Origin: a virus
Lineage: Duplodnaviria; Caudoviricetes
DNA: 64,000 nucleotides
Strand: one strand, 5' to 3'
IMG/VR virus record: IMGVR_UViG_3300013121_000047
Location: 1 to 64,000 of that record
Shown: piece after piece, positions 3,939 to 50,105 of the stretch
Layout of the letters: each line of letters opens with the position of its first letter
Position numbering within the stretch: the first letter of the stretch is position 1
Made by a program: the position numbers and the translations under genes
The notes under the pieces: generated by a model
The model's input: only the letters and a program-made list of their open reading frames with translations
Told to the model about the DNA's origin: nothing
Database searches by the model: none

Positions 3939-4412
3939 TTAAAGTGATAAAATAGATTCAATCTCAATATTTGACAATTGTGAGTAATTTTCTTTTTTCA
4001 AATTAGACATTTTTAATCTGGCCGATGCTGCTAAAAGATATTTTAATGCGGGTGCAAGCTCAGCGCGAGTATAAAAGTTTGCTTCTAAAAGTTCTTTTAA
4101 AACGTCAATTAACAAACCAGGCTTATCTATTGCCTGTTCTATTGAGATTTCATGTGGTTCGCCATTTTTATCCATTAAATCAATAGAACCTTTTGTGACT
4201 AATTTTAAAATTTCTTCTTGTGTTAGTTTTCCGCCATAGTTTGGCAAATATTTGTTTTCACCTTTAAAAATTGAGGCAACCTGTCTTCTTATTCCATCCA
4301 AAAGTTTATTACTTGTTGTTACGACAGGATGAACCCCCGCTTGAAAACCAAGTTGTTTATATTGGTTATCTAAATCGCGGTTTTCAAAAATTAAATCATA
4401 AAGTTTTAACAT
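3939..4412 (-). CDS. Hypothetical protein with IFE leader (putative internal head protein)
   Basis: Starts MLKLYDLIFE; TATTTA 8 nt upstream. Confidence 0.6.
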   Translation of the reverse strand: MLKLYDLIFENRDLDNQYKQLGFQAGVHPVVTTSNKLLDGIRRQVASIFKGENKYLPNYGGKLTQEEILKLVTKGSIDLMDKNGEPHEISIEQAIDKPGLLIDVLKELLEANFYTRAELAPALKYLLAASARLKMSNLKKENYSQLSNIEIESILSL

Positions 4413-4454
4413 AACAGTTTTAAATATGAAATTTAAAAGTTATATTTAGAATTG

Positions 4455-5012
4455 ATGTGCAAAATAAAACAAATAATTTTTGAAAAGCAAACTGAAGAGC
4501 AGGAAAATGAATTAGTTTATAATTTATCAAAAATTATTAACGCTTTATATAATTTTACAGAAGAAAATTTTTTAAAAACTTCTTTAAATAGTAAAATATT
4601 GAAATGGAATAAAATTGTAAACAATGATGATATTGATCAAATTTCAAAAGATATTATCCTATACAGTGAACCTAACGATATCGTAATAAAAACAGAAAAT
4701 GAATTATTTAATGGGCCACTTTTAGTCAAAAATTTTCCATTTATAAATGACGCAGAAAAACAAAATTATTTAAATCAAGATAAACAAGGAAAATACTTCG
4801 TTCCCTCGTTGTCTTTAATAAAAAGAAATAAAATAGATTACAGTTTAAAAATTGAAAAATTTGAATTAGTTGAGTTCAATTTAAAAAACAAAGATTTGTC
4901 TTTTATTAAATTTGTAAAAAATAAACAAGATAAAATGTATGCTATTGATTTAACAGACATTTCATATGTTTTTAACATATTGGCAAAAATAACTCAAGAA
5001 TTAGAAAATTAG
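4455..5012 (+). CDS. Hypothetical protein with IFE leader
   Basis: Starts MCKIKQIIFE; TATTTA at 4443-4448. Confidence 0.6.
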   Translation: MCKIKQIIFEKQTEEQENELVYNLSKIINALYNFTEENFLKTSLNSKILKWNKIVNNDDIDQISKDIILYSEPNDIVIKTENELFNGPLLVKNFPFINDAEKQNYLNQDKQGKYFVPSLSLIKRNKIDYSLKIEKFELVEFNLKNKDLSFIKFVKNKQDKMYAIDLTDISYVFNILAKITQELEN

Positions 5013-5317
5013 CCCATTTTTTGTCTTGTTTGGGTTGGAATTGTTGCGAGGTCATTTTTAAGTTTTCTTAAAATTCCAATCATTTCCAAAATAAGACGAT
5101 TTCTTTCACCAACTTGCGGTAAGCGAAGTATATCTTCTTCCATAATTTCTTCGCCTTCTTTGATTAATTCATCACAACCTTCAATAGTTTCACTTAGCAA
5201 ACTATCGACTTTAGTTAGATACTTATCAAGTTCACCGTGCCCAGGGTTTACAAGTTTAGACAATAAACCTTCTTTTAACACAGCTTTAATTTCATTTTTA
5301 AATTGAACTTTTTTCAT
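5009..5317 (-). CDS. Hypothetical helical protein, possible head-internal protein
   Basis: N-terminal IKAVLKE resembles an L-x-E protease site; coupled to upstream gene. Confidence 0.5.
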   Translation of the reverse strand: MKKVQFKNEIKAVLKEGLLSKLVNPGHGELDKYLTKVDSLLSETIEGCDELIKEGEEIMEEDILRLPQVGERNRLILEMIGILRKLKNDLATIPTQTRQKMG

Positions 5318-5973
5318 TATTGTCCTCTTAATTTGTCCATTATTCCACGGAAAAATCCTGGCTCTCTTGTTTTTGGAATATTTGCATCGGCTTCTGAACC
5401 TGCTACGGTTGAGGCCATGTTTGCATTCTTCATTAAACTTCTAGCTTCTTCGATGTCAAAATCTCTTGGAAGTTTAAGTCTTAATTCTTTTGCTTTTTCT
5501 GTGACAACTTTAAACATATTTGAAATTGCAAAATAAAGTTTTGCAATTAAAACTTTGGCTTCTTTTTGAACAACTGGTTCTTGTGCATCTAAAAGTGGAA
5601 GAACATCATCAACCGCACTAACAACAGATTCCATTTTTTCAGAAAGATCATTCACTGACTGAAACGAATCCATTTCAGCAGATTTTAACGCAGCTCTAAG
5701 TTTCCCAAGTGGTTTTGTTGCTTCTCCATATTGTCCTGGGCCTGGGAATGGTAGATTTACTTTTTTAAGACCTGTTGGTAGTCCTGATGGATTCGATCCC
5801 CATACTTCGTTTAATCCTTCGTAAAGAGCAACTTCTTCTTTTGAATCAAACTCTGATTTGATATCTTTAAAACAATCGTGTTGTAGCATTTCCTTCAACA
5901 CATTTCGGTGTTTGACCAACATTAAATTGTAATTTGCAACCGCTTCAGTTAAAGCGCTTATTTTTTTAGCCAT
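5317..5973 (-). CDS. Hypothetical protein, possible head-internal protein
   Basis: AGGAG RBS, TAATTA upstream, N-terminal MAKKISALTE/A matches a gp21-type site. Confidence 0.55.
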   Translation of the reverse strand: MAKKISALTEAVANYNLMLVKHRNVLKEMLQHDCFKDIKSEFDSKEEVALYEGLNEVWGSNPSGLPTGLKKVNLPFPGPGQYGEATKPLGKLRAALKSAEMDSFQSVNDLSEKMESVVSAVDDVLPLLDAQEPVVQKEAKVLIAKLYFAISNMFKVVTEKAKELRLKLPRDFDIEEARSLMKNANMASTVAGSEADANIPKTREPGFFRGIMDKLRGQ

Positions 5974-6078
5974 ATAGATTTTTTTCTCCTATGTGATTTA
6001 TGTAATCAAGAATAATTAATTTGTCAAAAATATAATTCAGAAAAAAGCATTATAAATAATTACTTTTGTGTAAATACT

Positions 6079-16698: not shown

Positions 16699-17340
16699 GT
16701 GGAAACAATAAAAATCAGAACCTATCAAGATCTTCCTAGAAAATTCACAGGAATTGCTGAATGGCATAATGGAACCAAATATTGGTTTAAAGAAGGAAAA
16801 CTTCACCGAGAAGATGGGCCAGCAAAAGAATTCGCTAATGGAACAAAAGAATGGTGGCTTAACGGACGTATTCATCGAGAAGATGGTCCTGCGGCGGAAT
16901 TTCCAGACGGGTCAAAAGAATTTTGGATTAAAGGGGAAATTTTTAATGTTTTTAATGATGACAGTGAATTTTTCTTGAAATTAACTGAGTTATTCCAGAT
17001 TTTAGATGAGGTTGCGCAAACAAATCCAATATTTGATTTTTCTTATAACAAAAAAATAGAAAACGAAATTTTAATCTTTTCAGGCTTTTGTTTTGTTAGT
17101 TCTTTTCAAGATGGTTTTAAAATCACTGGTCAATCAACAGGAGAAATTATGGTGGATTACGAACCTATTTTTAGAATTTTCACAGAAGAAAATCTTTATA
17201 AACTTGCAAAAGAAATGCTTGAAATTGGAATTGAACATCTTGAAGAAAAAAATAATCTAAAGTATAGCGAAGAAGAAAAGATAAATAACCCATTACTAAG
17301 AGAAACACTTAGTTTAAAATCTTTCCTTTTCAATAGTTAG
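16699..17340 (+). CDS. HRxDGPA-repeat family protein with unrelated C-terminal domain
   Basis: METIKIRTYQDLPRKFTG plus two HREDGPA repeats; lies between neck genes. Confidence 0.8.
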   Translation: METIKIRTYQDLPRKFTGIAEWHNGTKYWFKEGKLHREDGPAKEFANGTKEWWLNGRIHREDGPAAEFPDGSKEFWIKGEIFNVFNDDSEFFLKLTELFQILDEVAQTNPIFDFSYNKKIENEILIFSGFCFVSSFQDGFKITGQSTGEIMVDYEPIFRIFTEENLYKLAKEMLEIGIEHLEEKNNLKYSEEEKINNPLLRETLSLKSFLFNS

Positions 17341-19488: not shown

Positions 19489-22400
19489 ATGGCAGAAACA
19501 ATTTTAAAATTTCCAGGATACAGCGACAGCGAAATAGATGCTTCGGTAAGAGATACCGTCCCAACAGGTGATCCACCTGCAATTATTGGTGCGATGGTTC
19601 AAGGGCCAGCATTTATACCAACTGTAATTGGCTCCTTATCAGATCAAATTTCAAAATTTGGTCAAGTAACACCAGGATACCCAGCATCTTATGCTTCGCA
19701 AAGATGGTTAGAGAATAGAAACAGCGCAGTAATTGTAAGATTACTTGGTGCGGGCGCAAACAGTGGTTCTGGAGAATTTGACGATACACGAACAAAAGGA
19801 ATTGTTAAAAACGCAGGATTTGTTGTTTCTAGTTCACTTGTACAAGCTCCTAGTGATAGTCGCCATAATGGTGCAGTTCAATTTTTAATTGGGAAGCATG
19901 CACTTGCAACAAAAGAAGCTTATGGATATCCACTTTTCACAGATAATGATTCGTATACTGCGAGTAGCGGATACGTTAATCTTGTAAGAGGTATGATACT
20001 CTGTGCATCAGGTTCGAGAGTCATGGTTCTTGACGGAATCAATGAAGCATTCGAAAATAGTGTAAACGATATTGCTTCAATTGATAGCGGTTCAAACAGT
20101 GTAACTTATGGCAAATTTAAACTCGTTGTATCTACAAGTTTAGGTGCAAGTTTTTCTACTTCAGACGGATTTGATGGAATTAAAATCTTAACAGCTTCAC
20201 TAAATCCAACGGATAGTGACTATTTCGGAAAAGTACTAAATACTAATCCAGATAGATTCCAGCAAGAAGGTCATATTTTATATGCAGATTTTCCAATTGA
20301 TGCTGAGTTGGCACTAATCGCAAGTGGCTCTTCTAACTTGAACAGTGTTGCAATTATTTCTGGTTCTGCTGGAACAACTGCTACTGGTGGAATAACAACC
20401 GATCCATTTAGAAATTTATTTGGAAGATTTGATGCAAGATACTCCACACCAAAAACCCCAATGGTTATTTCTCAACCATTCGGAAATATTGAATACGAAT
20501 TATTTAATTTTGAAACCATTTCAGATGGTGATAACGCAAACCGAATGGTGAAAGTTTCGATTGCTGGATTAAAGGCATCTTCTGATCCAACATATGACTA
20601 TGGAACTTTTACAGTTGTTGTAAGAGATTTCAACGATACAGATTTTAATCCCCAAATTTTGGAACAGTTTCCAAATCTAACACTTGATAAAGATTCTGAT
20701 CGTTACATTGCCAAAATAATTGGAGATATTAAAGCAGAATATCGCTTTGACTTTGAAGATGAAAATGATCGCGGTGTAAACATTTCTGGGACCTATCCTA
20801 ATAGATCAAAATATATCAGAGTTAGAGTTACAGATGGGGTTTCATTAAAAACTTTGCCTGCCAAATGCTTGCCATTCGGTTTTAAAGGTGTTCCAACATT
20901 AAAAACCGCCGATTCAATAACAGACTCAAGCGGAACAACAAGAATTGGTTCCTCTGGTTCAATTTCTGGTTCACCAATTGTTCCTCCACTTCCTTTTAGA
21001 TTTAAGATAACAAGAGGTGATGTTTCTTCGACTGCTGCGTACACTGGCCAAGCTGGAACAACTGAAATTGTTGATGGTAGACTATATTGGGGTGTCAAAT
21101 TTGAAAGAAACTCTGATGCAACAAATACAAATATAATCAGCGAACAAAACGGATTAATTTCAAGTTATGGTAAACTTCTCGGAATATCAAAACTTGATAC
21201 CTTGTTTACAGGTTCATTTGCCGATTCTTTTAACAACAATAAGTTTTCGTTGTCAAAAGTTGTTCTTCCAACAACTGCAATCGCAGACTTAACTGCTTCT
21301 GTTGCTGCGATCTTAAAAGAGTCAGCATATATACGTAATGGAATTCCAGATGGAACAAATTACACAATTACCGATGGAAGTATAGGAGCCAGAATTACAC
21401 TAGCTTCAGTTCTACAAAAAGGCACAGCTGCTGAGTTTAACAGATTTAGCGATTATAGCAAATTCACAACTATGTTTTATGGTGGTTATGACGGTGTAAA
21501 CTTATTAGATAAAGAAGCTAGAAAGTTTACCGATAGATCAACGTCAATTGAATCAGGAAGTCTTGGCTATGGTGGCGCGGCATCAAGCTTTGTTTCTCCT
21601 GGATTTTTAAGTAACATGAATGGCGTGGGTGATGCAAATAACCAAATTAATAGTTACAAAACAGCTATTAAAATTGTTACAGATCCATTAACATCTCCAA
21701 TGTATATGTTAACTGTACCAGGACAAAGAGAACCGATTGTAACAGATTATGCTTCACAAAAGGTTTTGGATTTTGGTAGAGCATTTTACATAATGGATAT
21801 CCCTGCGTACGATAGCGACTCAGTTAGAATATTTGACGGAGAAACAAATAGATTTGTCGACAACCAAATAACTGCTAGAACATTTGATGCAAGAGCATTA
21901 GATAATAACGCTGTTGCTGTTTATCACCCATCAGTTACAATTGAAGATCCAATAAACGAAAAACGAACAGTTGTTCCAGCTTCAGTTGCGGCACTTTCAG
22001 TTTATGGTTTTAATGACAGAACAACTTATCCTTGGTATGCTGCCGCTGGTTTAAATCGTGGAGCACTTTTGTTTGTAAAAGCAGTCTCTCAAAAAACAAA
22101 AGCTTTAGACAAAAACTTATTCAGTGATACCAGAATTAATCCAATTCTAAAAGATGAAGGAATATATGTTATTTTTTCTCAATTCACTTTAAAACAAGGT
22201 TCAAATGCACTTACTTCAAGAGTAAATGTCAAACGACTTTCAATTGAAATTTCAAGAATGATTTCGAGTGTTGGTCATCCATTTATTTTTGAAAATTATA
22301 CAAATGCAGCGAGAGATAGTCTTGTTCGTACTTTAGAAAATAGATTTTCATTCTTGCAACAAACAAAAGCGATAAGTGCATTCCGTATAATTTGTGACGA

Positions 22401-22533
22401 TACAAACAATACAACTGTTGACAAAGAAAATCATAAAATAAACATATCAATTAAAGTAAGACCAATTGAATCTGTGGAATATGTTGACTTAAGTTTTGTG
22501 ATTACAAGATCTGGAACCTTCCTTATAACATAA
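19489..22533 (+). CDS. Tail sheath protein 1 (gp18-like)
   Basis: FPGY..EID, GPAFIPT, PWYAAAGLNRG, RINPI, RVNVKRL, CDDTNNT. Confidence 0.9.
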   Translation: MAETILKFPGYSDSEIDASVRDTVPTGDPPAIIGAMVQGPAFIPTVIGSLSDQISKFGQVTPGYPASYASQRWLENRNSAVIVRLLGAGANSGSGEFDDTRTKGIVKNAGFVVSSSLVQAPSDSRHNGAVQFLIGKHALATKEAYGYPLFTDNDSYTASSGYVNLVRGMILCASGSRVMVLDGINEAFENSVNDIASIDSGSNSVTYGKFKLVVSTSLGASFSTSDGFDGIKILTASLNPTDSDYFGKVLNTNPDRFQQEGHILYADFPIDAELALIASGSSNLNSVAIISGSAGTTATGGITTDPFRNLFGRFDARYSTPKTPMVISQPFGNIEYELFNFETISDGDNANRMVKVSIAGLKASSDPTYDYGTFTVVVRDFNDTDFNPQILEQFPNLTLDKDSDRYIAKIIGDIKAEYRFDFEDENDRGVNISGTYPNRSKYIRVRVTDGVSLKTLPAKCLPFGFKGVPTLKTADSITDSSGTTRIGSSGSISGSPIVPPLPFRFKITRGDVSSTAAYTGQAGTTEIVDGRLYWGVKFERNSDATNTNIISEQNGLISSYGKLLGISKLDTLFTGSFADSFNNNKFSLSKVVLPTTAIADLTASVAAILKESAYIRNGIPDGTNYTITDGSIGARITLASVLQKGTAAEFNRFSDYSKFTTMFYGGYDGVNLLDKEARKFTDRSTSIESGSLGYGGAASSFVSPGFLSNMNGVGDANNQINSYKTAIKIVTDPLTSPMYMLTVPGQREPIVTDYASQKVLDFGRAFYIMDIPAYDSDSVRIFDGETNRFVDNQITARTFDARALDNNAVAVYHPSVTIEDPINEKRTVVPASVAALSVYGFNDRTTYPWYAAAGLNRGALLFVKAVSQKTKALDKNLFSDTRINPILKDEGIYVIFSQFTLKQGSNALTSRVNVKRLSIEISRMISSVGHPFIFENYTNAARDSLVRTLENRFSFLQQTKAISAFRIICDDTNNTTVDKENHKINISIKVRPIESVEYVDLSFVITRSGTFLIT

Positions 22534-22635: not shown

Positions 22636-25600
22636 ATGGCAGATTTAACATTTAGAAGTCCTGGCGTAAATGTAAAAGAAATTGATATAAGTGGTGGTAC
22701 TGCTATACTACCTGCTGGCTTACCTGCGGTTGTAATTTCAACCACGCAAACAGGTCCAGCATTCGTTCCAGTTGTTGTTCCAACCTTAAAAGATTGGAGA
22801 ACATACTTCGGAGTTCCAGCAACTTATATTAATTTTGGAGCACTTGCAGCTACAGAATGGTTTAAAACCCAACAAGCTTTAACTCAAATAAGAGTATTGG
22901 GTGTCGGTGATGGCACACAACGAACAGACAGTGGAGATAATCGTGGAAAAGTAACAAGTGCTGGTTTCGTTGTCGGTGATCGCCAACCTCAGTCTAGTTT
23001 ATCTGGCGCTTTAGGAAGTAACGTTTATGCAAACACAGTATCTGCCGCACCAAATGCAACAGGTTCGGCTGGAAGAACTTACTTCTTGGGTTGTTACATG
23101 TCTCAAAGTAATGGGTCGTCATTTTTGTCAGAGGCTGGATTAAGTGGTTATGGGCAGCCAATTTTAAGAGGTGTTATCATGGCGGCCTCTGGCGTTATTC
23201 CAACACTTTCTTCATCAAGAGGTCCAGATTCTTCTATTCCAAATGCATCAACTTCAGCGGATTATTCAGCTGGAACAGTAAAAGGTTATATAACAGGTAC
23301 CGTTTACTTATCTGGTGGCTCTCAAGAATTCGTTGTTTTGTTAAATGGACATAAAGGAACGAGCGAATCTTATCCAAGAGCCCTAACCGCATCATTTGAT
23401 CCAACTGCTCCAAACTATTTGGGAACTGTTTTAAATAAAGATCCACTTAAATTAGAAGAAGCTGGATACGTTTTGTATTCTTACTATGATGTACATAGCT
23501 CACTTGCCGTACCAACAGGTTCAGGAATTATTGCTACAACAAGTGGTGGTATTCGAGAAAATATTGCATTTTTAGTTACAGGTGCGATGTCAAGAAACAG
23601 TGGTTCTTCAACAGCTCCAAACTACGAATCGTTTGAAGATAGATATCGTACTGCTCACACTCCGTGGTTCATTTCTCAGCGCCAAGGTGGATTATATCAA
23701 AACTTATTTAGATTCCATCTTATAAGTGATGGCGAAACAAACCCAGTTAAAGTAAGCATTGAAAACATTTCACCATCTACAAGTGATGTAAATCCATATG
23801 GAACATTTGATGTACTTGTTAGAGCATTTAGTGACACCGATAGCAACAAAGTCATTTTAGAAGCTTTTAGAGGTTTAACTCTAAATCCAAAATCTAGCAA
23901 ATATATCGCAAAACAAATTGGAGATAAAAATATTTATTACAATTTCGATGCATCTGAAGATCAACAAGGTTTATCAGAACCAGGAAATTATGATCTTCGT
24001 TCTAGATATATTCGTGTTGAAATGGATGAATTGGTTGATAACATAGAAACTGATTCAAGTTTACTTCCAATGGGTTTCCGTGGTCCACAACACCTTGTAA
24101 CTTCTGGAAGCGCTCCTATGCCAGCTTATTCAGATACCAGTCATTTACTTTCTCAAAATCCATTTAATAAAATGGTGGAACCTCCTATTCCTTTTAGAAC
24201 TGCAATTTCCAAAGGAACAGGAACAACTAAAACTGCTGACCGTAGTTTATATTGGGGCATTCAATTTGAAAATGTTGTATCTGTTAGTGAACCAAATAGT
24301 TCCAAAATTCCAAATAGAAGCTTAGTATCCAGAACTAAATATTTTCCAACTTTCCAGGTTGACTGGGCAAATTTTGCTGTTGATAATAACGAAGGTGTTG
24401 CCGACACAGCAGCAAATGGTATTTTGGATGCTGATAGGTTTAATAACAATTTATTCTCATTAGAAAAAATTAGAATTTATTATAACTCTACAACAAATCT
24501 TCCAAATACAAACCAGATTAAAAATTGGGCTTACGTTAGAGCAGGAAATATATCTACAGATACATCTGCTTTAACAAGAGCACTTCAAGTTTCTGATTTG
24601 CTTGAACCAACAACCAGAACCGTTGCTAAATTCACATGTTATTTCTACGGTGGATTTGACGGTGTAAGAATTTTTAACTTAGATACAAAATATCTTACAA
24701 ACAAAGCAATTGTCGAAGAAATGGTTTCTTCTAATAGAGGATTCTCTGATGGACCAACCGTTAAAGCATATAGAAAATCTTTAGATCTTGTTGCAGATTC
24801 CACAGAAGTTGATGGAAGACTGTTTGTTATCCCTGGTATTCGCCACGAAATTATTACTGACGCAGCAATTGATGTGGCAACACGATCAAGAAATGATATT
24901 TTCTATATTTTTGATCTTGAAGAAAAAGATACAAATGGAAATACTATAACAAGTGACACTCAAGATGTGTCTATTTCTCAAACAATTACAAATTTTAGAA
25001 ATCGTGGTCTTGATTCAAGTTATGCTGCGACATATTTCCCTGATGTTATAATTCAAGACTCTTATAATAAAGTTTCTGTAAGAGTCCCTCCGTCTGTTGC
25101 TGTGCTCGGAGCATATGGATTAAATGATCTTATAGGATATTCATGGTTTGCACCAGCAGGATTTACTCGTGGCGCTTTAAATAGTGTTGATAGAACTGCG
25201 CTAAGTATTAAACAAGAAAATCTAGATGATTTGTATCCAGAAAAAATAAATCCAATAACAGCATTTCCAGGTGAAGGCGTAAAAGTTTGGGGCCAAAAAA
25301 CGGTAAATGCAAGTGTTTCTTCTCTCGAAAGAATTAATGTTCGTAGATTATTACTTACACTACGAAGAAGAATACGTTTAATTTCGAAATCTGCACTTTT
25401 TGAACAGTACACAGATACTCTCTTACAAGAATTTTCTAAATTAGTAGAACCAGTATTAAAAGAAATACAAGATCTTGGCGGTTTAGAAAACTACAGAGTT
25501 TATATTAATAATCTAACAACAACTCAACTTGATAAAGAAAATCGAGTTATTAGAGGAAAAATTATCGTTCAACCAACAGAGTCGATTGAATTTATTGAGT

Positions 25601-35138: not shown

Positions 35139-35579
35139 CTAACCCTTTCTGTTTTGTAGTTTAATCAATATTATTTTAAGTAACTCAATTGTTCTTTTTG
35201 ATGGATTACTGGTTAAAAATCCACAATTCTTTTTAAGTGAATAAGGTGGAATTTTTCCGTTAAATTGTTTAACTGTTATATCGATAATTTTTCCATCTTT
35301 TTTAGATAAAAACCAATGTGTTCCGCCGCAAAATTTAACATAAGAAGGTGTATATAAATTAGTTTGTTTTGTTAAATGATAAAAAGCTTCTGAGGCAACA
35401 TAACAATGCCCAGCCAATTTATTGCTATTTCCTTGATACTTTTTCTTTCTTAGATTATCTGAAAGTGATCTTTTTATTAAAACTATAATCTGACTTTCTG
35501 TTGGCTTAAATCCATTTTCATTTATTTCATATAAAATTTGCTTGATTAATTTTTTACCAAAGTTCTGTTTTGGTTTCAA
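35139..35579 (-). CDS. YunG-like protein with putative Cys-His-Asp triad
   Basis: GHCYVASE...THWFL...IIDITVKQF. Confidence 0.55.
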   Translation of the reverse strand: MKPKQNFGKKLIKQILYEINENGFKPTESQIIVLIKRSLSDNLRKKKYQGNSNKLAGHCYVASEAFYHLTKQTNLYTPSYVKFCGGTHWFLSKKDGKIIDITVKQFNGKIPPYSLKKNCGFLTSNPSKRTIELLKIILIKLQNRKG

Positions 35580-37840: not shown

Positions 37841-38488
37841 TTATGCGCCATAATCTAAAATAACAAGACTTCCATCGGCGCGAAGCCCCCAATTATCTTC
37901 ATGAAAATCATCTGCATTCATTTTGCAGTTATTTAACTCATCAGATAAATTTTTACCCCAAGAATTTAACTCTATTTCAAGGCCACCAGACAAAGCATCG
38001 CCGATTGCGTATATTGCTCTGTTGGTGGTCATTAGAGAAATAAATTCAAAAAACTTTTCATCAGAACCCTCTAGATTTTGAATTAATAGTTTTAAAATTT
38101 GTTTATTTGATAATCCAGTTTGCACTTTTTCACAAATTATCCAAAAATAATTTTCTTTATCGAAATCATAAATTTTTGTAAAATATTCATCAGAAAAACA
38201 ATTTGACTTAAGTGTAATTTCGGCTTTGTTTTGATTCACTCCTCCAAATATACCTTCGCCATCTTTTGCAACTTTAACAATAAATTCAGTTCCTGGGATG
38301 TCATATATTATTCTTCCATTTCCTTCTGCTATTTCCACAAATCCATGAGCTTTAGCCAAAAGCTTGAATTTAATTCTTTCTGGAAGATCCATGTGCTGAT
38401 TCATTTCTTGCCTTATCAAATCTCCATACCTCTTTGCTTCAGGATTTGAAGTTAATGCCATTTCAAATATAATTGGATAAAGTTTCAT
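37841..38488 (-). CDS. Minimal protein-kinase-like protein with IFE leader
   Basis: MKLYPIIFE; IAEGNGRIIY, FIVKV, NKAEI, DFHEDN, ILDYG; TAATTA 6 nt upstream. Confidence 0.8.
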   Translation of the reverse strand: MKLYPIIFEMALTSNPEAKRYGDLIRQEMNQHMDLPERIKFKLLAKAHGFVEIAEGNGRIIYDIPGTEFIVKVAKDGEGIFGGVNQNKAEITLKSNCFSDEYFTKIYDFDKENYFWIICEKVQTGLSNKQILKLLIQNLEGSDEKFFEFISLMTTNRAIYAIGDALSGGLEIELNSWGKNLSDELNNCKMNADDFHEDNWGLRADGSLVILDYGA

Positions 38489-39623: not shown

Positions 39624-41525
39624 TTATATGACGTTCATGTCGAGAACTGTTATTACGCTGTAGAAGGATGGATTTACCATTTTCATCCCGTTACGGGTCA
39701 TTAGACCTCTACGTGGTGTAAAGTGTTCGGTATCATAAACTGTTGGTGTGAGAACCAATGGAATATAAGGAGCGAACACGAAACCTGATTCAAGGAATCC
39801 TGATCCTTTGAGACCGATGAGGATTTTGTTACGTGGGAAGTATGGATCGCGGTAAACAGTGAAACGACCAGCGATTGTTCCAACTGATTCTGCACCGACA
39901 CTCATTTGATCTGAAACTTGGCCATTTCCGTCAACTTTGTAGTTGGCTTTGTAACCTTGTGTCGCTTCAAGAATTGTGCTTACATCTGGGCCACAAACAA
40001 TGAAGTTACCTGAGCCGCGAAGTGTTTTGCGGTGAATTTCATTTGAGCAGTCGATGATTGTTTCGATGAGTGTTTCGTACCATTCTCTAACAGTTCCAGT
40101 GAATGCTGGACCCGCTGCGAGAGAGGCAGAACGTAATACTTCAGAACCTGTTTGTTTGTTAACGAATTTACCTGGAGCTCTTGACCAGTAGTATCTCGCG
40201 GCTTTCGCTTCGAGAAGTAATTGGTTAAGAATTTCGCGGTCGATTTCGAGAGTAACCATTTCTGAAATGATGTTGGTTAATTCAGCTTCAACATCCATTG
40301 AATAAAACGCGGACAAATCCTGTGCCATCTCAGGACTCCAGCGAGCGCGAAGTTTTCTTGCTTGCGCTGTAACAGCTGTTGATTCAATTTTGATTTCAAC
40401 TTCTGGAATCGCTGGTGTTGGTGGTGTTGCGAAATCAGATTCAAATGGAGAAAGTGTAAGTGCACTTCCATCTGTGTTAACAGTAAGAGAGTCACCAATT
40501 GCAGCAGACATTGTTACTGGACCTGCTGGTACTGCACCTGTATTACTTACAGCAACAACGAAAAGTACGTGTGTACCATTCAAGTGATCTGGTGTAAATG
40601 TTGAGGTAAGGTAGTTCCAGTTACCGCGTTGGTTAAGTTTACGGAGGTTTTTAACTGATTGGCCACCTTGGTAGGTAGAATCCCAGTTGGCAACGCCGTT
40701 AGCTGTTGTGAAACCAACGATAGCAAGTTGATCTACCGCACGAAGGTCAGCTCCTGGAATCTTTGTGAGAACTTCAGAAGATGAAACGAAGGCAAAGCAG
40801 TAGTCAAGGGCCGCGTTTTCAACATCTGTTGAGATTTTAGAATCATAGTCGATCCAACGAGCATTTAATCCAGTAACTTCCGCCGCTGTTGCAACTGTAT
40901 CTGCTGCTGTCCAAGAAGTACCTGATGCACCGAATGCACCGATGTCTGGAACAACTACAGTTGTTGCTGACTTGTGAACTTTTGAGAAACCAGTGTTTAC
41001 GTTATCATACATACCACCCGCCGCGTTTGTTCCGCTACGAATATCGGCACCTGATGGTGAACCGAAAAGTGATTGTCCTTTTTTGTATGTAGAGGCTGTG
41101 GCCGCATCACTTAAGCTTAAACCAGCTGTTCCACCAACGTTAGAACCATATGAGTAATCCATGTAGAAGATAAGTCCTGATGGAAGGCTCATTGGTTGAA
41201 CTGAAACTAATTCATTGGAAATTAATCCAGCGAAAAGTCTACGAACGATTGGGAACGCGATGGAAATAAAACCAGCAACCTGACCACTAGAAGCGAGTCC
41301 TGCTCCGCCTAATGAAAGCGCATTCGCTTCCATAAGAACTTGTGGGTTACGGATCATTTCAGCCGCTTGGTTTTCGAGCAAGCGCGCCATTTTTTGTTTC
41401 GCACCTTTGCTATTAAAACCGTCGAGTAAACCGTAATTGGCCCACTTATCGACTAAACGATCGTCCATTCCACGATTTGGATTAAGTTCTAAACCTTCTG
41501 ATAATTGTTGTAATGTAAAAGACAT
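39624..41525 (-). CDS. Major capsid protein (T4 gp23 family)
   Basis: ARLLENQ, VSVQPMSLPSGLIFY, ARKLRARWS.E.AQDL, EIDREI, YRDPY, FAPYIPL. Confidence 0.96.
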   Translation of the reverse strand: MSFTLQQLSEGLELNPNRGMDDRLVDKWANYGLLDGFNSKGAKQKMARLLENQAAEMIRNPQVLMEANALSLGGAGLASSGQVAGFISIAFPIVRRLFAGLISNELVSVQPMSLPSGLIFYMDYSYGSNVGGTAGLSLSDAATASTYKKGQSLFGSPSGADIRSGTNAAGGMYDNVNTGFSKVHKSATTVVVPDIGAFGASGTSWTAADTVATAAEVTGLNARWIDYDSKISTDVENAALDYCFAFVSSSEVLTKIPGADLRAVDQLAIVGFTTANGVANWDSTYQGGQSVKNLRKLNQRGNWNYLTSTFTPDHLNGTHVLFVVAVSNTGAVPAGPVTMSAAIGDSLTVNTDGSALTLSPFESDFATPPTPAIPEVEIKIESTAVTAQARKLRARWSPEMAQDLSAFYSMDVEAELTNIISEMVTLEIDREILNQLLLEAKAARYYWSRAPGKFVNKQTGSEVLRSASLAAGPAFTGTVREWYETLIETIIDCSNEIHRKTLRGSGNFIVCGPDVSTILEATQGYKANYKVDGNGQVSDQMSVGAESVGTIAGRFTVYRDPYFPRNKILIGLKGSGFLESGFVFAPYIPLVLTPTVYDTEHFTPRRGLMTRNGMKMVNPSFYSVITVLDMNVI

Positions 41526-41571: not shown

Positions 41572-43524
41572 TTAGCCATTTTTCTTGTTAGCTACTAATT
41601 CTCTAAATCTGTCTGCTGAACCGATCACAATTTTATCAGCCGCTGTTCCAGGTTTAACTGGTTTGCGAGAGACTGATTCATTAAGAGAATCAGTTTTTTT
41701 CTCTGTTTTTTTAGCAGCTTCTGCTTTCGCTTCGCTTAATTGTTTTTTAATTCTACCATAAATACGTTTTGCATCTTCAGGATTTTTTGCTCTATCAATA
41801 TATTCAACAACTAATTCTTTTTGTTTCTTTGATAGTCCGTCATAGTTTGCGAAAACTCTATTTATGTATAAAGAACGTGCCGCAACAGTTTCTAACTCTT
41901 TGGCATATTCTTTGAGAGATTTGACTTGTTTTGATTCTTGAAGACTTGATGGGGTTTCTTCTGGTGTTTTGGTTTCATCCATATCCCAATCTTCATCCAT
42001 CGATTCATCTTCGTCCATAACAATTTCAAACATATCTTCTTCATTGAGATCTTCATCACCTGAAGAAAGAGTCATGTCATCTTCGTCTCCGTCAGAATCT
42101 ACAAGATCAACTTTTGATCCCATATCTGAATCGGCTCCGTCAACTTTTCCATCTGTTGTAATTGTTATTGTAGTTTGTCCGCTAGAACCTTCCATACCAC
42201 CGCATTCGTCCATTTCTTTTTGGGCAGCGGCAAGTTGTTCCTTAAGTTTTTTAACTTTTTTGAAAGCTTCAACTTTTTTAGCTTTTTTCGCGGCTTTGTC
42301 ATCTTTTTTGGAAACTTTTTTACTTTCCATCACTGAACTTTCGCCAGCGCCAAGCATTTCATCCATTTCTTTTTCAAGAGCAGCAATTTCTTCATCGAGA
42401 CTTGAATCAGAATCTGAAGATTCTACTTCTTCTGTAGCGTCTTCTTTCAAAAGTGATTCGTCTTCTTTCGCCTTGTGTTTAAAAGGAGCTTGTTTACCTC
42501 TTTCGGGGTCTTCTAATTTTGGTTTCGAAGCAGCAGCCGCACCTTTTCCTGCTTTATCAGCAGCTTTATCTAATGCGTCGAGCGGTTCAGAAACTTTTTC
42601 TACCGTGCCATCATCTCCGAATCCTGTTTCTAAAGATTCGAGAAGGCCATTTAAAAATGATCTTGTTTTTGGATGAACTTTCATTATGTGATTTCCTTCA
42701 GTAATTTTTTGAGTTCTGTGATAACTATTGTACAATTTTTCAGAATTCTGAATTAACTTATAAAGATTTTCCATTTTTAATGATAAAACATCAAAAGATG
42801 TCTCTCTAATCTCTTTTAAATCTTTCATGTTTTCTAATTCAGAATAAGTTTCAAGCAACTTATAAGAAAAGTCAGAAACTTCTTTTAATCCAATTTTTTT
42901 AGAAATAAACATATTGGCATATTCATTTTCCAATACACCAATTTTGTCTCTGGCTTCTTGAAGTTTTTCTGGATTAAATTTTTCAGCAGGTTGAGTTTCA
43001 GGAACAGTTTCTGTTGGTGCTGGTTGTTCAACAGGAGTAACTCCTACTTTTTCCTCTGGTTGCGCAGGAGGGATTTCCGCAGATCCAACTTCAGGTGTTT
43101 CTAATGGTGGCGTACTTTCTGGTGCTTGAACTGGTGTTTGTGTTGGTTGTGGTAATCCACTTGGACTTGAAAAAAGTGATTCAAACGAAACAATTACTTT
43201 TCCGTCAGCGTCTGGTATTGGCATCGTTGCATTTCCGCCAACTGGTGTTATTGGAGCACTGAAACTAGTATCAACTGGTTCTGCTGATTTTTCAGCAGGT
43301 ATTTCAGATTTCTCTGCTGAATCTGTTGGTGGTTGCTCTTGCGAAGCCCCCAAATCTAGTGACTCAGGTTCATCTTGTTCAAATAGAAAACCTTCAATTT
43401 CTTGCTCAACCATTTTTTCAATATATGGTTTGTATTTTTTTAATACATCTGTTTCGACTTCTTGTCTTAAAACCTCTTTTAGTTTTTTACTGTCCGCAAT
43501 AGCTTGTTCGTAAAGTTTTGACAT
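41572..43524 (-). CDS. Prohead scaffold/core protein (gp22-like)
   Basis: Acidic low-complexity coiled-coil protein immediately upstream of MCP; many L-x-E sites. Confidence 0.7.
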   Translation of the reverse strand: MSKLYEQAIADSKKLKEVLRQEVETDVLKKYKPYIEKMVEQEIEGFLFEQDEPESLDLGASQEQPPTDSAEKSEIPAEKSAEPVDTSFSAPITPVGGNATMPIPDADGKVIVSFESLFSSPSGLPQPTQTPVQAPESTPPLETPEVGSAEIPPAQPEEKVGVTPVEQPAPTETVPETQPAEKFNPEKLQEARDKIGVLENEYANMFISKKIGLKEVSDFSYKLLETYSELENMKDLKEIRETSFDVLSLKMENLYKLIQNSEKLYNSYHRTQKITEGNHIMKVHPKTRSFLNGLLESLETGFGDDGTVEKVSEPLDALDKAADKAGKGAAAASKPKLEDPERGKQAPFKHKAKEDESLLKEDATEEVESSDSDSSLDEEIAALEKEMDEMLGAGESSVMESKKVSKKDDKAAKKAKKVEAFKKVKKLKEQLAAAQKEMDECGGMEGSSGQTTITITTDGKVDGADSDMGSKVDLVDSDGDEDDMTLSSGDEDLNEEDMFEIVMDEDESMDEDWDMDETKTPEETPSSLQESKQVKSLKEYAKELETVAARSLYINRVFANYDGLSKKQKELVVEYIDRAKNPEDAKRIYGRIKKQLSEAKAEAAKKTEKKTDSLNESVSRKPVKPGTAADKIVIGSADRFRELVANKKNG

Positions 43525-43634: not shown

Positions 43635-44141
43635 TTATTCGTCTCTATTAATGAATGTGTTTCCAGAACCATTTCCTGGCCCATTTGTTTCACCTGGAGG
43701 TGGCGCAACATATTTTGCGACGTGTGGAGATACTAATCCATTTCCAATGAAAGCACCGCGACTTCTAGATTTTATTCTAATTGTTGCTTCTCTTCCTGCC
43801 TCTGGAGTTGTTCTAGGATCAAATGGAACAACTGGGTTTGCTATGTTTGGGGCAAATGGTGTTGCTGGCTTGCCAGCTCCACCAACTTCAACTTCGTCAA
43901 AGTTAGGTGTTCCACTGTATTTTCTATCAACTAATCCAAACATATATCCACCATCGTTGATAAAGTCTCCTTCTAATTCAGGTGGAGCATAAAAAGAATT
44001 TTTAATTGCTTCATCTGTTAATTCTCCATTATATAGTGGAGAAGCTGCAAAAACAATTTTTGCAGCTGTTGTATCGGCTGCACCAGCTCCAAAGGTTGTT
44101 GCTGGTACTTCTCCCAAATATCCTGGTTTAATTCTTGGCAT
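43635..44141 (-). CDS. Pro/Gly-rich putative virion protein
   Basis: In head gene cluster, AGGA RBS, TAGTTA upstream. Confidence 0.5.
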   Translation of the reverse strand: MPRIKPGYLGEVPATTFGAGAADTTAAKIVFAASPLYNGELTDEAIKNSFYAPPELEGDFINDGGYMFGLVDRKYSGTPNFDEVEVGGAGKPATPFAPNIANPVVPFDPRTTPEAGREATIRIKSRSRGAFIGNGLVSPHVAKYVAPPPGETNGPGNGSGNTFINRDE

Positions 44142-44710: not shown

Positions 44711-45430
44711 TTATTCTTCCTTTTTGTTAATCTTTTTTGCCATCTCTAAAAGAGTATTGTAATGAGAATTTTTAATTTTTTTATTTTCGTTCATTGAAAT
44801 TTGAAAATCTTTTGATTTTAAATTTTTAGATTTTTGCGTTGGTGTATTAATCTTATCTTCCATAAAAGCTTTTGGTGTAGAAGGTTCTGTAACAATATCC
44901 CAACAAATGATATGTAAATCATTCCCTACAACATCAGCGACGATTCCTTCTGGAAGTGTTTGTCGATTTACTGATCCCATCGCTCTAGAAGAAATCCCAA
45001 TTTTTCCTCCTGTTTTTAGCGCACCTCGTATTTTTTTATCTTCTTCTGTTCCAGGGAAAATAACAATTTCACCATAAACAATATCTTCTTCGAGCCAAAT
45101 TTTTCTAAACCTAAATGCAGCGTGCTTGAATTCGACAACTTCACTATCTTTATGATCTAATTCACCGTAAGCCATTCCAGTTTCAACTTTAGTTTTTATA
45201 TAGTGTTCAAGTTGAGGAACCAAAACATTTCTTGGATATACCCTTCCATTTTGATTTAAAGTATTACAACGTTGAATAATTCCAGATAAAACTAAAGCTT
45301 CGTTATATGAATCTAAATTGGATGCATCCAAACTTTCGTTTAGGGAAGTTTTTGCATTTTTTAAATCAAAAACAAAATTTTCTTTTAAAAGAATTTTCTT
45401 GATTTTTTTTTGAGTATTTTCTTTTTTCAT
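44711..45430 (-). CDS. Prohead maturation protease (gp21 family)
   Basis: NQNGRVYP, GELDH, GISSRAMGSV, WDIVTEPST. Confidence 0.93.
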   Translation of the reverse strand: MKKENTQKKIKKILLKENFVFDLKNAKTSLNESLDASNLDSYNEALVLSGIIQRCNTLNQNGRVYPRNVLVPQLEHYIKTKVETGMAYGELDHKDSEVVEFKHAAFRFRKIWLEEDIVYGEIVIFPGTEEDKKIRGALKTGGKIGISSRAMGSVNRQTLPEGIVADVVGNDLHIICWDIVTEPSTPKAFMEDKINTPTQKSKNLKSKDFQISMNENKKIKNSHYNTLLEMAKKINKKEE

Positions 45431-46266: not shown

Positions 46267-46326
46267 TTTTAACCTTATATCGATATTTAACTATTAGATT
46301 GGTAATCGTTTTTAAAAGTAATATAC

Positions 46327-48405
46327 TTATCCTTCTTCATTTGTTGTAATATTTTTACTTATTAGTCCATAAAATGGTTTAAAGTCACTTTTTTCTTTTT
46401 CAATCTCAATCTCAATTTCCGATTCCTCAACTTCTTGTTTTTGTTTTGATTCTAAAAGAAATTTTTTGTAGTTTTTTAATGAAGAAACAACTTCTTTGTA
46501 AATGCCACTATTTGGAATTTTATTTTGAGCACTGTCTTTAAAACTTTCTTTAATAAGAGAAGTATAATGTTCATCTACTTCCTTCAATGTTTCAAAATTT
46601 GTTTTCTGTGATGTTATCATATTCATTCCAAAATAAGGATTTATAATTTGTTTATTAAAATTTGATGTTTTAATAAGTGATGGAAATAATTTCGACGGAA
46701 CTGAGTAGTTTGGATTTACAGGCATTTTCTCATTTGGTAAATTTACTTTTACAACCTCAGATTCTTCTACATCAATTTGAGGAACACGATTTAAATCTGT
46801 TGCTAAAGTTTCCTGATTTTGTATTTCTGCTGGTGGAGTTTGCATTAAACGACCATTTCCTCCTGGGACATCATAATTCGATGGATCAAATTGATCAGGT
46901 TCTTGTCCAGGTTGTGTTTGAATTGGTTGTAGTGCTTCGAAAGTTTTATTTCTAATAGTATCTTGTTCTCTACCTAAACGTATCCTTATAATATCTGCAT
47001 CATTAAATCCAAAAATTTCTTTTTGAATGACCTCTTCATCTACATGTGGTAAATCTTTTGCTTTTCCTGCAATGTCAAGTTTCTTTTCCCAAAGTTCAAG
47101 TTTCTGTAGAACTGCTGCCGTGCTAGGATTTGTTAGTTTTAAGTTGAAATTGACTAGATCTTCGCCGTCGAAACCCTTGGCGTAAAGGTGTATAGTTGCC
47201 ATTCGTTTCAATTCCGCGATTATTATTCGTTGAATTACAGAGACAGTTTTTGAAAACCTTATATCTTGTGCAGATAAGTTATTTTTACCTACAGCTTCAT
47301 CGTATCCTAAAAAGGCGCGTGGCATTTTCAGTGCTGCCGTTAGTTGTTTGTGAACGAAAGCAATATCATCGACTGCCGTTTGATGTGTAGCCCCTTCCAA
47401 AGTTTCAACTTTTGTTAAAGAGTCTCTTCTAATCGGAATAAAATAATTTTCTAACATGGAAGAAGGATTCCATCTATAATCTTGTCTTCCGTCATTATTA
47501 GAAACAATACTTTTTGCGTTAAAAGATTCTTCCACTTTTTTCATAAATGGATCTACAGCATTTGGATTTATCCCAGTAATGTCAATAAAAAATAATCTCC
47601 TAGCTGGGGATCTTACAATTCTATATGTTAACATCGCATCAATTAACATCATAAGAACTCGATACGGTCTTCTTGCGCCATCCAACCAACTTGTTCCATG
47701 TGGTCTATACGCATCATTTGCAAGTAATCGAAAATTTGCAACTTGAAAATTTTCTAAGTATGATGAATTCTGAGAAGAAGGATTTTGAATATTTGGGGTA
47801 GTAATTTTATACCTAACTGCATGTGGATCATTTTTATCAAATTTCTCTTGACGCTCACAATCTGGTGCTGGAATTTGCTCTATGTTTATAATTCCTTCTC
47901 TTTCTCTAACATCCAAAAACAAGAAGAAATCTCCGAATTTTAACATACTTCTGACCCAATATCTTAAGTCAGAATTTAATTTACAAACATCGAAAAATAA
48001 TTCTTCTAAACTTTTTCTAATTTCAATTGAATCTGTTTCTATGTGTAACATTTGATCATTTTGATCAACGGCACAAATTTCATCGGCCAAACCATCAAGA
48101 GCTGTACCACACTCAGATGATTGAGCATCCATGTCAATATATTCTCTATAACGATAAATTCTATCATAAACCCCAAAGTAACCCATACCAACAAATCCAG
48201 AATAACTGTGGCGATATGCATTATAACTTGGATAACCTATATTTCCGTGCAAAGCAAGTTCTTGTGGTGTTGCTAAATTTGTATAATCCAATCCTTTTAT
48301 CTTTCGATTAATATTAACACCAGAACGAAAAAGATTTGTTACTCTTTTGTAAAAATCTAAAGTTCTTTTTATTGCATCGTCGTTATTTTCTTTTGAATCT
48401 GACAT
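46327..48405 (-). CDS. Portal protein (gp20 family)
   Basis: YRIVRSPARRLFFID, MLENYFIP.R, VETLEG, ALKMPRAFL, QDIRFSK. Confidence 0.93.
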   Translation of the reverse strand: MSDSKENNDDAIKRTLDFYKRVTNLFRSGVNINRKIKGLDYTNLATPQELALHGNIGYPSYNAYRHSYSGFVGMGYFGVYDRIYRYREYIDMDAQSSECGTALDGLADEICAVDQNDQMLHIETDSIEIRKSLEELFFDVCKLNSDLRYWVRSMLKFGDFFLFLDVREREGIINIEQIPAPDCERQEKFDKNDPHAVRYKITTPNIQNPSSQNSSYLENFQVANFRLLANDAYRPHGTSWLDGARRPYRVLMMLIDAMLTYRIVRSPARRLFFIDITGINPNAVDPFMKKVEESFNAKSIVSNNDGRQDYRWNPSSMLENYFIPIRRDSLTKVETLEGATHQTAVDDIAFVHKQLTAALKMPRAFLGYDEAVGKNNLSAQDIRFSKTVSVIQRIIIAELKRMATIHLYAKGFDGEDLVNFNLKLTNPSTAAVLQKLELWEKKLDIAGKAKDLPHVDEEVIQKEIFGFNDADIIRIRLGREQDTIRNKTFEALQPIQTQPGQEPDQFDPSNYDVPGGNGRLMQTPPAEIQNQETLATDLNRVPQIDVEESEVVKVNLPNEKMPVNPNYSVPSKLFPSLIKTSNFNKQIINPYFGMNMITSQKTNFETLKEVDEHYTSLIKESFKDSAQNKIPNSGIYKEVVSSLKNYKKFLLESKQKQEVEESEIEIEIEKEKSDFKPFYGLISKNITTNEEG

Positions 48406-48439
48406 TTTATCTTAATAAATATTTAATATTAAACAAAAA

Positions 48440-48970
48440 ATGTTAAATTGTACCAGTTTGTTAACCTTGGAGCCGAAATATTGTGATGATGAAATTCAAA
48501 TAGAAATTAAAAAGGCTATACAGGTTTGTAATCTTTTTGTAGAGGAAAAAAATCAAAACTGGCTTCATTTTCGTTGGGTAATTTGGGAAGAAATTTGTAG
48601 ACTTATGCCAATAAAAACAAAACAGCCCATTTGGCCATTTGGTAAATTAGTTTACTACAATAAACGTTTTATTTTTGGTGACTTAGATATTTGGTTAGCC
48701 CATTATTGGAATAAATTAAATGGCGGTATTCTATGGATAGAAAACTCATATTTAAAAGAATACAAATATAAGCCAAAAAAAATACCAAAGATGTCGAAAA
48801 TAAAAAAAACAAAACAGAAAAAGACATTTTCTACATTTAATAATTTTTTACATTCAAAAGACTATACTGCAGCCAAATATTTATATTTGTTAAAAGAAGA
48901 AAAAAAATATGCAAAAGAAAAATCTAAGAAATCCAAAAAAAGAAAATCTAAAAATGATAAAATTATATAA
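48440..48970 (+). CDS. Hypothetical protein with basic C-terminus
   Basis: 176-aa ORF. Confidence 0.45.
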   Translation: MLNCTSLLTLEPKYCDDEIQIEIKKAIQVCNLFVEEKNQNWLHFRWVIWEEICRLMPIKTKQPIWPFGKLVYYNKRFIFGDLDIWLAHYWNKLNGGILWIENSYLKEYKYKPKKIPKMSKIKKTKQKKTFSTFNNFLHSKDYTAAKYLYLLKEEKKYAKEKSKKSKKRKSKNDKII

Positions 48971-50105
48971 TTTTATTTTTGAAGAATATGGCGACGATAT
49001 TGGAGGAGGAGGCTATTCAGATTTTTCAGCATATGGTTCAATTGGAGGTGGAGGTGTTGATATTTTTAAAAAAACATTTGTCGACCCATTTTTTGACATT
49101 TTCAAAACAGGTCAATATGCAGTAGAAAAGGCAACATCTTCAATTTTTTATTTTGCAAAAAAATTACTAGTTAATTTTCCAAGATTATTTTCACCTTCTA
49201 AGCCTCTTATATTTGATGAAATTAGAGACCAAGAAAAAGCTGCCTTTGCTAGAATGGACAAACGATATTCAGAAATTTTACAAAGAAATGCTGAAGCTCT
49301 TGAAAATAAAGATTTTAAATTAATTTTATTCTTATTGAATCCTAAAGCTGCTCTTGGTATGAAACTATTACAAAAATCGCCAAAAGCAGCATTCAATATA
49401 TTGAATACTTTTTCTGGTAACAAGTTACAGGACTTGATTTCGGACATTAAATCGGCATATTACGCTCTTCCAGCAGTACAAAGAAGAAATCTGCGTGTTC
49501 AAAAATATATTGAAAAATACAAAGAAGATGACGAAAAAAACAAAAAACATTTGCCAAAATCAACTGTTCCTGATGGTGCTGGTTATATGAGTTACGGAGC
49601 AGATTATCGCTATTCAACAAATAACGGAAACGAGGATTTTGTTCAAGAAAATGCGGAAAATTATGAACCAACAGAAAAAGATTTTCTTGAAGCAGGTTTG
49701 TTGTATTTAGAAAAAAATCCACAGAAAAAAGCGGAATTGTTTGGAGATGTCATAAACCAAATACAACCTATTGGAAATCAATTATTTGAATCGCTAATAG
49801 CTAAATTTCAACAAGTGAAAAACGCATCCTCATTAGAAGATTATTCTAAAATAACTGGTGCTAATTTATCTGTTGCAAAACAAGAAATGGATAAAATTAT
49901 AAACGAAGAGTTACAAAAACAAAAAGACGTTGACAAACAAAAGGTTGCAGATGCATATAAAAAAATGAAATCAATAATTGAACCACAACTTCTTGATTCA
50001 TTAAAATCTGATTATTTTTCTAATTTAAGTCAAACTATTAAACCAATAGTAAGTTCGCTTACCCCAGAACAACAACAAAAAATAAAAGAATTGTTTACAA
50101 AATAA
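48954..50105 (+). CDS. Hypothetical protein with IFE leader
   Basis: Likely start MIKLYNFIFEE at 48954, followed by a Gly-rich linker. Confidence 0.6.
   Translation: MIKLYNFIFEEYGDDIGGGGYSDFSAYGSIGGGGVDIFKKTFVDPFFDIFKTGQYAVEKATSSIFYFAKKLLVNFPRLFSPSKPLIFDEIRDQEKAAFARMDKRYSEILQRNAEALENKDFKLILFLLNPKAALGMKLLQKSPKAAFNILNTFSGNKLQDLISDIKSAYYALPAVQRRNLRVQKYIEKYKEDDEKNKKHLPKSTVPDGAGYMSYGADYRYSTNNGNEDFVQENAENYEPTEKDFLEAGLLYLEKNPQKKAELFGDVINQIQPIGNQLFESLIAKFQQVKNASSLEDYSKITGANLSVAKQEMDKIINEELQKQKDVDKQKVADAYKKMKSIIEPQLLDSLKSDYFSNLSQTIKPIVSSLTPEQQQKIKELFTK

Follow-up and report, generated by a model that had tools for sequence, protein, structure and literature searches.

A short leader ending in Ile-Phe-Glu on unrelated proteins of an uncultured phage as a probable T4-type capsid-targeting tag

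The window analysed here is the first 64 kb of the IMG/VR record IMGVR_UViG_3300013121_000047 (G000), a phage record of 185,441 bp in total for which CheckV estimates 51% completeness. A preliminary description of this window had drawn attention to a short leader ending in IFE at the N-termini of otherwise unrelated proteins, and had interpreted it as a portable tag that loads enzymes into the phage head. We find that this leader follows the consensus M-(K/N)-(L/I)-x-x-(F/L/I)-I-F-E and that it is probably a capsid targeting sequence (CTS) of the type known from phage T4, which would direct its carriers to the prohead and be removed there by the prohead protease; injection of the carriers together with the DNA is a less confident part of the same reading. 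The interpretation draws support from the unrelatedness of the carriers, an end that fits the (L/I)-x-E rule of the T4 protease, conserved positions that map onto those of T4, a boundary exactly at the Glu, the disorder of the tag in a structural model and the presence of an S77 protease within a T4-like head module. Much of the analysis also relied upon a close relative with a complete genome of 390,884 bp and terminal repeats (G001), whose protease is 85% identical to that of the window. No DNA-level match to a cultivated phage was found, and the nearest capsid proteins are those of Microcystis phage Mel-JY01, the Flavobacterium 'immuto' phages and uncultured huge phages (33-43% identity), from which we take the record, as judged by its sequence, to come from an uncultured jumbo phage that belongs to the T4 superfamily.

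All seven N-termini listed in the preliminary description translate as claimed and from the coordinates claimed, while the start codons of two genes required correction. The gene at 30149-30820 had been credited with a Met start, when its real start codon is GTG, and the start placed at 48954 is probably wrong. The likely start of the latter gene is 48909, as all 11 of its 11 homologues begin with MQKK and most have no inner Met. A genome-wide scan of N-termini, which had been suggested as a check, placed the motif at N-termini far more often than chance would. Among the 59,219 residues encoded by the record, [LIF]IFE is found 14 times, and 11 of the 14 lie among a protein's first 25 residues (1.3 expected); in an unbiased scan of all tripeptides IFE ranked first for N-terminal enrichment, being found in 13 genes versus 1.5 expected (p about 7e-9). 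These statistics rule out chance or amino acid composition as the source of the pattern. With a six-frame scan included, the record contains 15 strong leader genes plus three weak ones, and the close relative contains about 21. The carrier proteins range from 123 to 429 amino acids, and those of the record that lie beyond the window start at 103268, 104056, 105935, 112728, 113708, 118618, 130714 and 179393. Several leader genes start with GTG, in which case public gene calls begin at a Met located after the tag. The close relative additionally has what we refer to as a 'cargo island' at 293287-300149, in which six adjacent leader genes encoding proteins of 212-429 amino acids occupy both strands and none is related to another by BLAST; it falls in a region beyond the coverage of the partial record. 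The leader genes of the window outside its head module, together with the two weaker cases, are as follows.

3939-4412, minus strand: leader cargo gene, 157 amino acids, MLKLYDLIFE followed by N; no family match.
4413-4454: divergent intergenic region of 42 nucleotides with one TATTTA box per gene, at about 4421-4426 for the minus-strand gene and 4443-4448 for the plus-strand gene.
4455-5012, plus strand: leader cargo gene, 185 amino acids, MCKIKQIIFE followed by K; no family match.
5317-5973, minus strand: weak candidate, 218 amino acids, MAKKISALTE followed by A (a T4-like L-x-E, then A); kept in the close relative.
28880-29542, minus strand: leader gene for a minimal protein-kinase-like protein, 220 amino acids, MEIKSIIFE followed by MA; matches phrog_4301 and, weakly, a Ser/Thr kinase phrog.
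29532-30152, minus strand: leader gene for a minimal protein-kinase-like protein, 206 amino acids, MKLRQFIFE followed by N.
30149-30820, minus strand: leader cargo gene, 223 amino acids, GTG start, (M)LKLKKLIFE followed by S; not detectably a kinase; TAATTA box 11 nucleotides upstream.
35139-35579, minus strand: weak candidate, 146 amino acids, TTG start, LIKQILYE at residues 11-18; phrog_12251; basic mature part with an isoelectric point (pI) of 10.
37841-38488, minus strand: leader gene for a minimal protein-kinase-like protein, 215 amino acids, MKLYPIIFE followed by MA; the family member whose structure was modelled.

The two weaker cases, which had been put forward as such, do have motif-like ends, but both remain weak. 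The orthologue of the gene at 3939-4412 in the close relative is 71% identical and carries the leader MIKIFDIVFE.

To describe the leader, we aligned 39 carriers of the record and the close relative on the Glu (38-39 depending upon the measure), and positions are counted back from this residue as P1. P7 is Leu or Ile and P4 is Phe, Leu, Ile or Tyr, each in 34/39 carriers. P3 is Ile in 34, Val in three and Leu in two, and hence Ile, Val or Leu in all 39, which fits the (L/I)-x-E protease motif. P2 is Phe in 38/39 carriers and P1 is Glu without exception, whereas the residue after the Glu is variable (S, E, N, K, T or M). From P7 to P1, the information content is 2.4, 1.7, 1.1, 1.6, 3.1, 4.0 and 3.75 bits, after which it drops to 1.2 bits at P1' and to about 0.4 bits further on. 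Given this collapse past P1, the Glu is exactly where the conserved unit ends. The leader is 8-10 residues long in 31 of the 39 carriers and reaches 25 residues in a 398-amino acid protein of the head module, while the distance from the start codon to IFE is 3 to 10 codons, or 22 in that same protein.

These features closely resemble those of the CTS of T4. As had been stated in the preliminary description and is confirmed by the RefSeq record, T4 ipII and ipIII both start with MKTYQEFIAE, which is followed by A, and gp21 removes this CTS from IPII and IPIII (Mullaney and Black 1996, cited in PMC9026906 and PMC3012670). Amber-suppressor analysis of the T4 CTS attributed targeting mainly to residues 4 and 7 and processing to residues 8 and 10 (PMC9026906). 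Counted from the cleaved Glu, these residues correspond to P7, P4, P3 and P1, the positions at which the tag is conserved, and the two targeting positions are hydrophobic or aromatic in both systems. The T4 CTS and the tag can be nearly aligned as MK-x-Y-x-(x)-F-I-x-E, and both consist of about ten N-terminal residues with a hydrophobic or aromatic P7 and P4, Ile at P3 and Glu at P1, placed upon unrelated carriers in a genome that encodes a protease of the gp21 family along with a T4-like head module. There are also clear differences. T4 has Ala at P2 where the tag has its near-invariant Phe, only 3-4 proteins carry the CTS in T4 as opposed to 15 to about 21 here, and the T4 cargo is small and basic, whereas the proteins described here have 123-429 amino acids, are for the most part acidic or neutral, and number enzyme folds among them; the function of the tag is predicted. 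A parallel for the cargo is the T4 ADP-ribosyltransferase Alt, which a short propeptide directs into the head and which is injected along with the DNA (PMC9026906). For the kinase-like and GNAT carriers we propose the same model, in which an enzyme enters the head core, is trimmed by the prohead protease and is delivered at infection, although these carriers belong to other enzyme classes, none of the carriers was found to be an ADP-ribosyltransferase, and Alt is also trimmed at its C-terminus. In the giant phages phiKZ, 201phi2-1 and SPN3US, propeptides of head and ejection proteins are cut at S/A-x-E (PMC5694885, PMC10052503). Phages of this type similarly remove propeptides from many internal and ejected proteins via a gp21-related protease, and their paralogues share N-termini. 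However, their propeptides mostly exceed 100 residues, share no single short consensus and end in A/S-x-E rather than I-F-E, and neither the scaffold nor the genome of these phages is of the T4 type.

The head module of the window supplies the machinery upon which a T4-type tag would depend, and comprises the following genes.

39624-41525, minus strand: major capsid protein, gp23-like (phrog_138, E 9e-70).
41572-43524, minus strand: acidic scaffold-like protein of 650 amino acids in the gp22 position; starts MSKLYE/QAIAD, with GFLFE/Q at residue 49.
44711-45430, minus strand: prohead core protease, gp21 family, Peptidase_S77 (PF03420, E 9e-24).
46327-48405, minus strand: portal protein (phrog_213, E 1e-46).
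48909-50105, plus strand: head-module neighbour of the portal gene, 398 amino acids from the likely start; all-helical, with a basic variable N-terminus.

Two small proteins are encoded between the scaffold-like gene and the protease, and a 279-amino acid protein is encoded on the minus strand between the protease and the portal. The match to PF03420 confirms the gp21-family protease that had been assigned to 44711-45430. In its own N-terminus, L14, L15 and E17 (KKILLKE/N) are invariant in 12 relatives of 35-41% overall identity, and this LL-x-E is a candidate self-targeting or autocleavage site by analogy with LIE-9 of T4 gp21, which is itself perhaps a self-targeting propeptide (PMC9026906). 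The capsid protein has a candidate maturation site, VLME/ANALSLGG, after residue 66, close to the position expected from the 65-residue propeptide of T4 gp23 (PMC9026906); relatives have FLNE/ANSLS or LLRE/QNSLS here, that is, a hydrophobic residue and L-x-E followed by (A/Q)N. The scaffold-like protein has no Pfam or PHROG match, and in relatives it starts with M..LYDEAIAE/AK. We also considered GYLGE/VPAT near the N-terminus of the small protein p168 (43635-44141) as a cleavage site and dropped it, as the orthologue of the close relative has Gln at that position. The 398-amino acid protein contains IKLYNFIFE/EYGDD, with the motif at residues 17-25 of its 25-residue leader, and its 11 homologues have MQKK, a variable basic stretch and then (I/L)xL(Y/F)x(F/Y)IFE/EYGDD. 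The model of this protein (predicted local distance difference test score, pLDDT, 50) was too poor for a fold search. From its corrected start, the gene overlaps the preceding 176-amino acid gene (48440-48970) by 62 nucleotides in another frame.

If the tag works as in T4, its carriers would be made together with the head proteins and become attached through the tag to the prohead's scaffolding core. Cleavage after the Glu by the S77 protease of the gp21 family would then release the mature protein inside the head, and at least part of this cargo would exit with the DNA and act in the newly infected cell, as T4 IPI-III and Alt do. Several observations weigh against this reading. The phage is uncultured, and the presence of the tagged proteins in virions, the removal of the tag and the ejection of the cargo are presumed by analogy. 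The near-invariant Phe at P2 is not needed by the T4 rule and is missing from the candidate site VLME of the capsid protein. In a distant relative of 305 kb and 43% GC (G002), whose protease is 45% identical to that of the window, no shared leader was found by either tripeptide enrichment or all-against-all clustering of N-termini (5 edges versus 6 in the control). Most of the mature cargo is acidic or neutral (pI 4.5-8), which is unlike the basic internal proteins of T4 and more like Alt. The putative scaffold is assigned from its position, its acidic composition and its N-terminal similarity to relatives only. Lastly, a TAnTTA box that precedes most leader genes is also found upstream of a thymidine kinase gene, and co-expression of the leader genes with head genes is therefore not established by it.

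Since P2 is Phe in nearly all carriers and yet lies outside both the protease rule and the capsid site, the protease cannot be the only reader of the tag and may not be its reader at all; the core is a plausible candidate. The same residue also lends itself to an explanation in which the hydrophobic-x-Glu end is a coincidence and the tag is a recognition leader for other machinery of the phage or host, for instance a modifying enzyme, or else a signal for degradation, timing or a localisation that has nothing to do with the capsid. One radical S-adenosylmethionine (radical-SAM) protein is indeed encoded by the close relative, which might have suggested a maturase of the radical-SAM/SPASM type, but its gene lies at 40 kb, adjoins no leader gene and has no SPASM domain match, and the record itself has no radical-SAM gene. 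A secretion signal can be ruled out from the length and the acidic end, as a tag of 8-10 residues that ends in Glu and has no long hydrophobic run is too short for a Sec, Tat or lipoprotein signal, which would require a basic n-region, a hydrophobic h-region of at least 7-15 residues and a signal-peptidase site. A leader for other machinery would also leave unexplained why the conserved positions coincide with the functional map of the T4 CTS (PMC9026906) and why conservation stops exactly after the Glu, and we consider it unlikely.

The largest group of carriers is a protein-kinase-like family. It has 12 members in the record and the close relative and matches phrog_4301; six members are in the record, three of them in the window (28880-29542, 29532-30152 and 37841-38488). 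K72, E90, D194 and D212 are invariant in all 12 members, as are F8 and E9 of the leader, which provides the family with a beta3 Lys, an alphaC Glu, a catalytic Asp and a DFG-like Asp; most members also have D-x4-N, with His in place of Asn in two paralogues outside of the window. The leader is the best-conserved segment of these proteins, which are otherwise 25-30% identical. An AlphaFold model of the 37841-38488 protein reached a pLDDT of 86 and a predicted template-modelling score of 0.82, with the tag (residues 1-10, pLDDT 34) left as a disordered segment outside the kinase fold. A Foldseek search of the PDB with this model gave 73 matches at E<=1e-3, and those listed are all kinases of the kinase-like superfamily with probabilities of 0.97-1.00; the template-modelling scores are only about 0.4, so that the fold is present in a minimal version. 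Kinases were likewise the only matches when PDB sequences were searched with a profile. The preliminary description had called three of the window's proteins kinases, which the modelled fold and the catalytic residues bear out, with phosphotransfer activity as a prediction.

A profile search of 1.84 billion representatives identified 4,646 members of the same family at E<=1e-3, and 29 of the 149 best database matches begin with an IFE/LFE-type leader, while others have different hydrophobic-x-E ends. On a T4-like contig of 46% GC, the family member starts with MPSELKSFIAE followed by V, and its two neighbours have ALIQE/A and TLVRE/A. On a contig of 29% GC, the family member starts with MKLYNIIFE followed by N, and a nearby 242-amino acid protein starts with MKKIKLKSLLFE followed by E. 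Judging from these N-termini, the tag carried by one kinase-like family changes by lineage. In one subfamily, MAL(S/T) would follow the cut, which looks like an original start codon retained behind an added tag. A seemingly 'leaderless' member (P0003) owes its appearance to a miscalled gene start, as a GTG codon that opens VKLYPIIFE lies immediately upstream. We tentatively raise the possibility that the family constitutes a widespread class of capsid-packaged, injected kinases through which T4-like and jumbo phages could reprogram or disarm the host within seconds, before phage gene expression, in which case the six copies of the record might serve as a pre-loaded effector arsenal. It should be noted that four database members (P0004, P0013, P0024 and P0052) have 2-4 tandem kinase-like domains in a single protein of 500-2,130 amino acids, and these may be either real fusions or read-through of gene arrays. 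On an unrelated T4-like contig of 46% GC (L064:9018-10675), two short genes matching Pfam Gp23, which encode stand-alone fragments of the capsid protein, directly adjoin a member of the family.

Outside of this family, the carriers appear to have little but the leader in common. The claim that the bodies are unrelated apart from the three kinases holds in the window by both BLAST and hhalign, and BLAST sorts the approximately 40 carriers of the record and the close relative into the 12-member family and about 20 groups consisting of singletons or orthologue pairs, so that the tag is found on at least 20 families unrelated by BLAST. When the kinase-family profile was aligned with hhalign to six other carriers, among them the protein encoded at 3939-4412, the alignment covered residues 1-12 and nothing else. 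One carrier beyond the window (118618-119127) is a GNAT acetyltransferase (PF00583, E 1e-5) with the acetyl-CoA motif RGxGIA. It is full-size, with roughly 9-12 additional N-terminal residues compared to a solved GNAT of 166 amino acids; a search for untagged homologues gave only near-identical proteins. The carriers other than the kinase-like family and the GNAT protein have no family match, and a tblastn search of 50,697 phage records found no cultivated relatives for the cargo genes at 103268-104059 (outside the window) and 48954-50105. We also weighed whether the shared N-terminus could be a functionless relic of common descent, the bodies having diverged past recognition. That 12 of the approximately 40 carriers do form one family, and that duplication is active in tandem arrays (28880-30820 in the window and 118693-122015 in the close relative), would agree with such an origin. 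Nonetheless, the carriers include two distinct known folds, protein-kinase-like and GNAT, and differ widely in size, hhalign detects nothing past residue 12, and a leader that drifted neutrally should not be conserved better than any other segment in proteins of otherwise 25-30% identity. Common descent without a tag function thus seems quite improbable.

Leader genes also share an upstream element. TAnTTA is present within 50 nucleotides upstream of 70% of leader genes versus 19% of other genes, and if only genes with an upstream gap of >=25 nucleotides are considered, it is found for 17/19 leader genes versus 27% of the others (16/19 versus 25% for TA(A/G/T)TTA). Most copies are located 11-17 nucleotides before the start codon. 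Elsewhere in the record, the box precedes the portal gene, the scaffold-like gene, one sheath paralogue, a truncated terminase copy and a baseplate-wedge-like gene, and it is a genuine promoter-like element common to leader and structural genes. The preliminary description had referred to it as the TADTTA late motif; the box is real and enriched at leader genes, but the label 'late' could not be upheld, given that the thymidine kinase gene has it as well and most large box genes have no family match. The T4 late promoter TATAAATA is not enriched upstream of leader genes (1/40), and a search for other promoter motifs by strand-asymmetric 7-mers gave only ribosome-binding-like AAAGGA words.

At the nucleotide level, the codons of the leader are unremarkable for the most part. 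The conserved Ile is encoded by ATT in 17 carriers, ATA in 14 and ATC in three, and the Phe by TTT in 27 and TTC in 10, all of which match genome usage, and at least 12 different codons are used at P4. The exception is the Glu, which is GAA in 38/38 cases from the record and the close relative versus 86% genome-wide (GAG 14%). Because synonymous codons vary at the Ile, Phe and P4 positions, the constraint is on the peptide, and selection acts on the peptide rather than the DNA. A nucleotide-level element travelling with TAnTTA, be it a translation-initiation region, an mRNA element or a recombination junction, with the peptide as its by-product, could account for the fixed spacing at which box and leader co-occur, the exclusive use of GAA and the GTG starts of several carriers, but it is very hard to reconcile with this synonymous variation, with the variable distance from start codon to IFE and with operon-internal leader genes that have no box and still keep the peptide.

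Returning to the capsid-targeting interpretation, a tag that works as in T4 would allow sequence alone to predict which proteins are delivered with the DNA by a large uncultured phage. The predicted set comprises at least 15-21 proteins, is enriched in enzymes (kinase-like and GNAT), and would be a place to seek first-response factors for counter-defence or host takeover. The diversity of T-even internal proteins except for their CTS, and the idea that the CTS is perhaps a general loading route for varied T4-like proteins, have been described before (PMC9026906, PMC3012670). As these studies already cover CTS loading, the principle is not new; it is textbook T4 biology, which makes the present advance incremental. 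The new elements are the consensus and the cargo set, which is much larger than in T4 and rich in enzymes. The T4 rule would extend to a distant jumbo lineage that has kept P7, P4, P3 and P1 and added a Phe at P2, and this added residue could offer a clue to recognition of the tag by the scaffolding core, a step for which a structural explanation is still lacking.

Two further groups of paralogues were observed in the window. Tandem tail-sheath paralogues of about 1,000 amino acids each are encoded on the plus strand at 19489-22533 and 22636-25644 (phrog_23, E 5e-31 and 3e-47). A second paralogue family starts with the pattern METIKIK...P(K/N)N(Y/F)TG(I/V)(V/A)E(W/Y)...WYKEGKLHR.DGPA and resembles a MORN-type repeat; its five copies in the window are four minus-strand genes at 312-3223 and one plus-strand gene at 16699-17340, and the close relative has >30. 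This family accounts for a second N-terminal enrichment signal, that of the tripeptides YTG and TGI.

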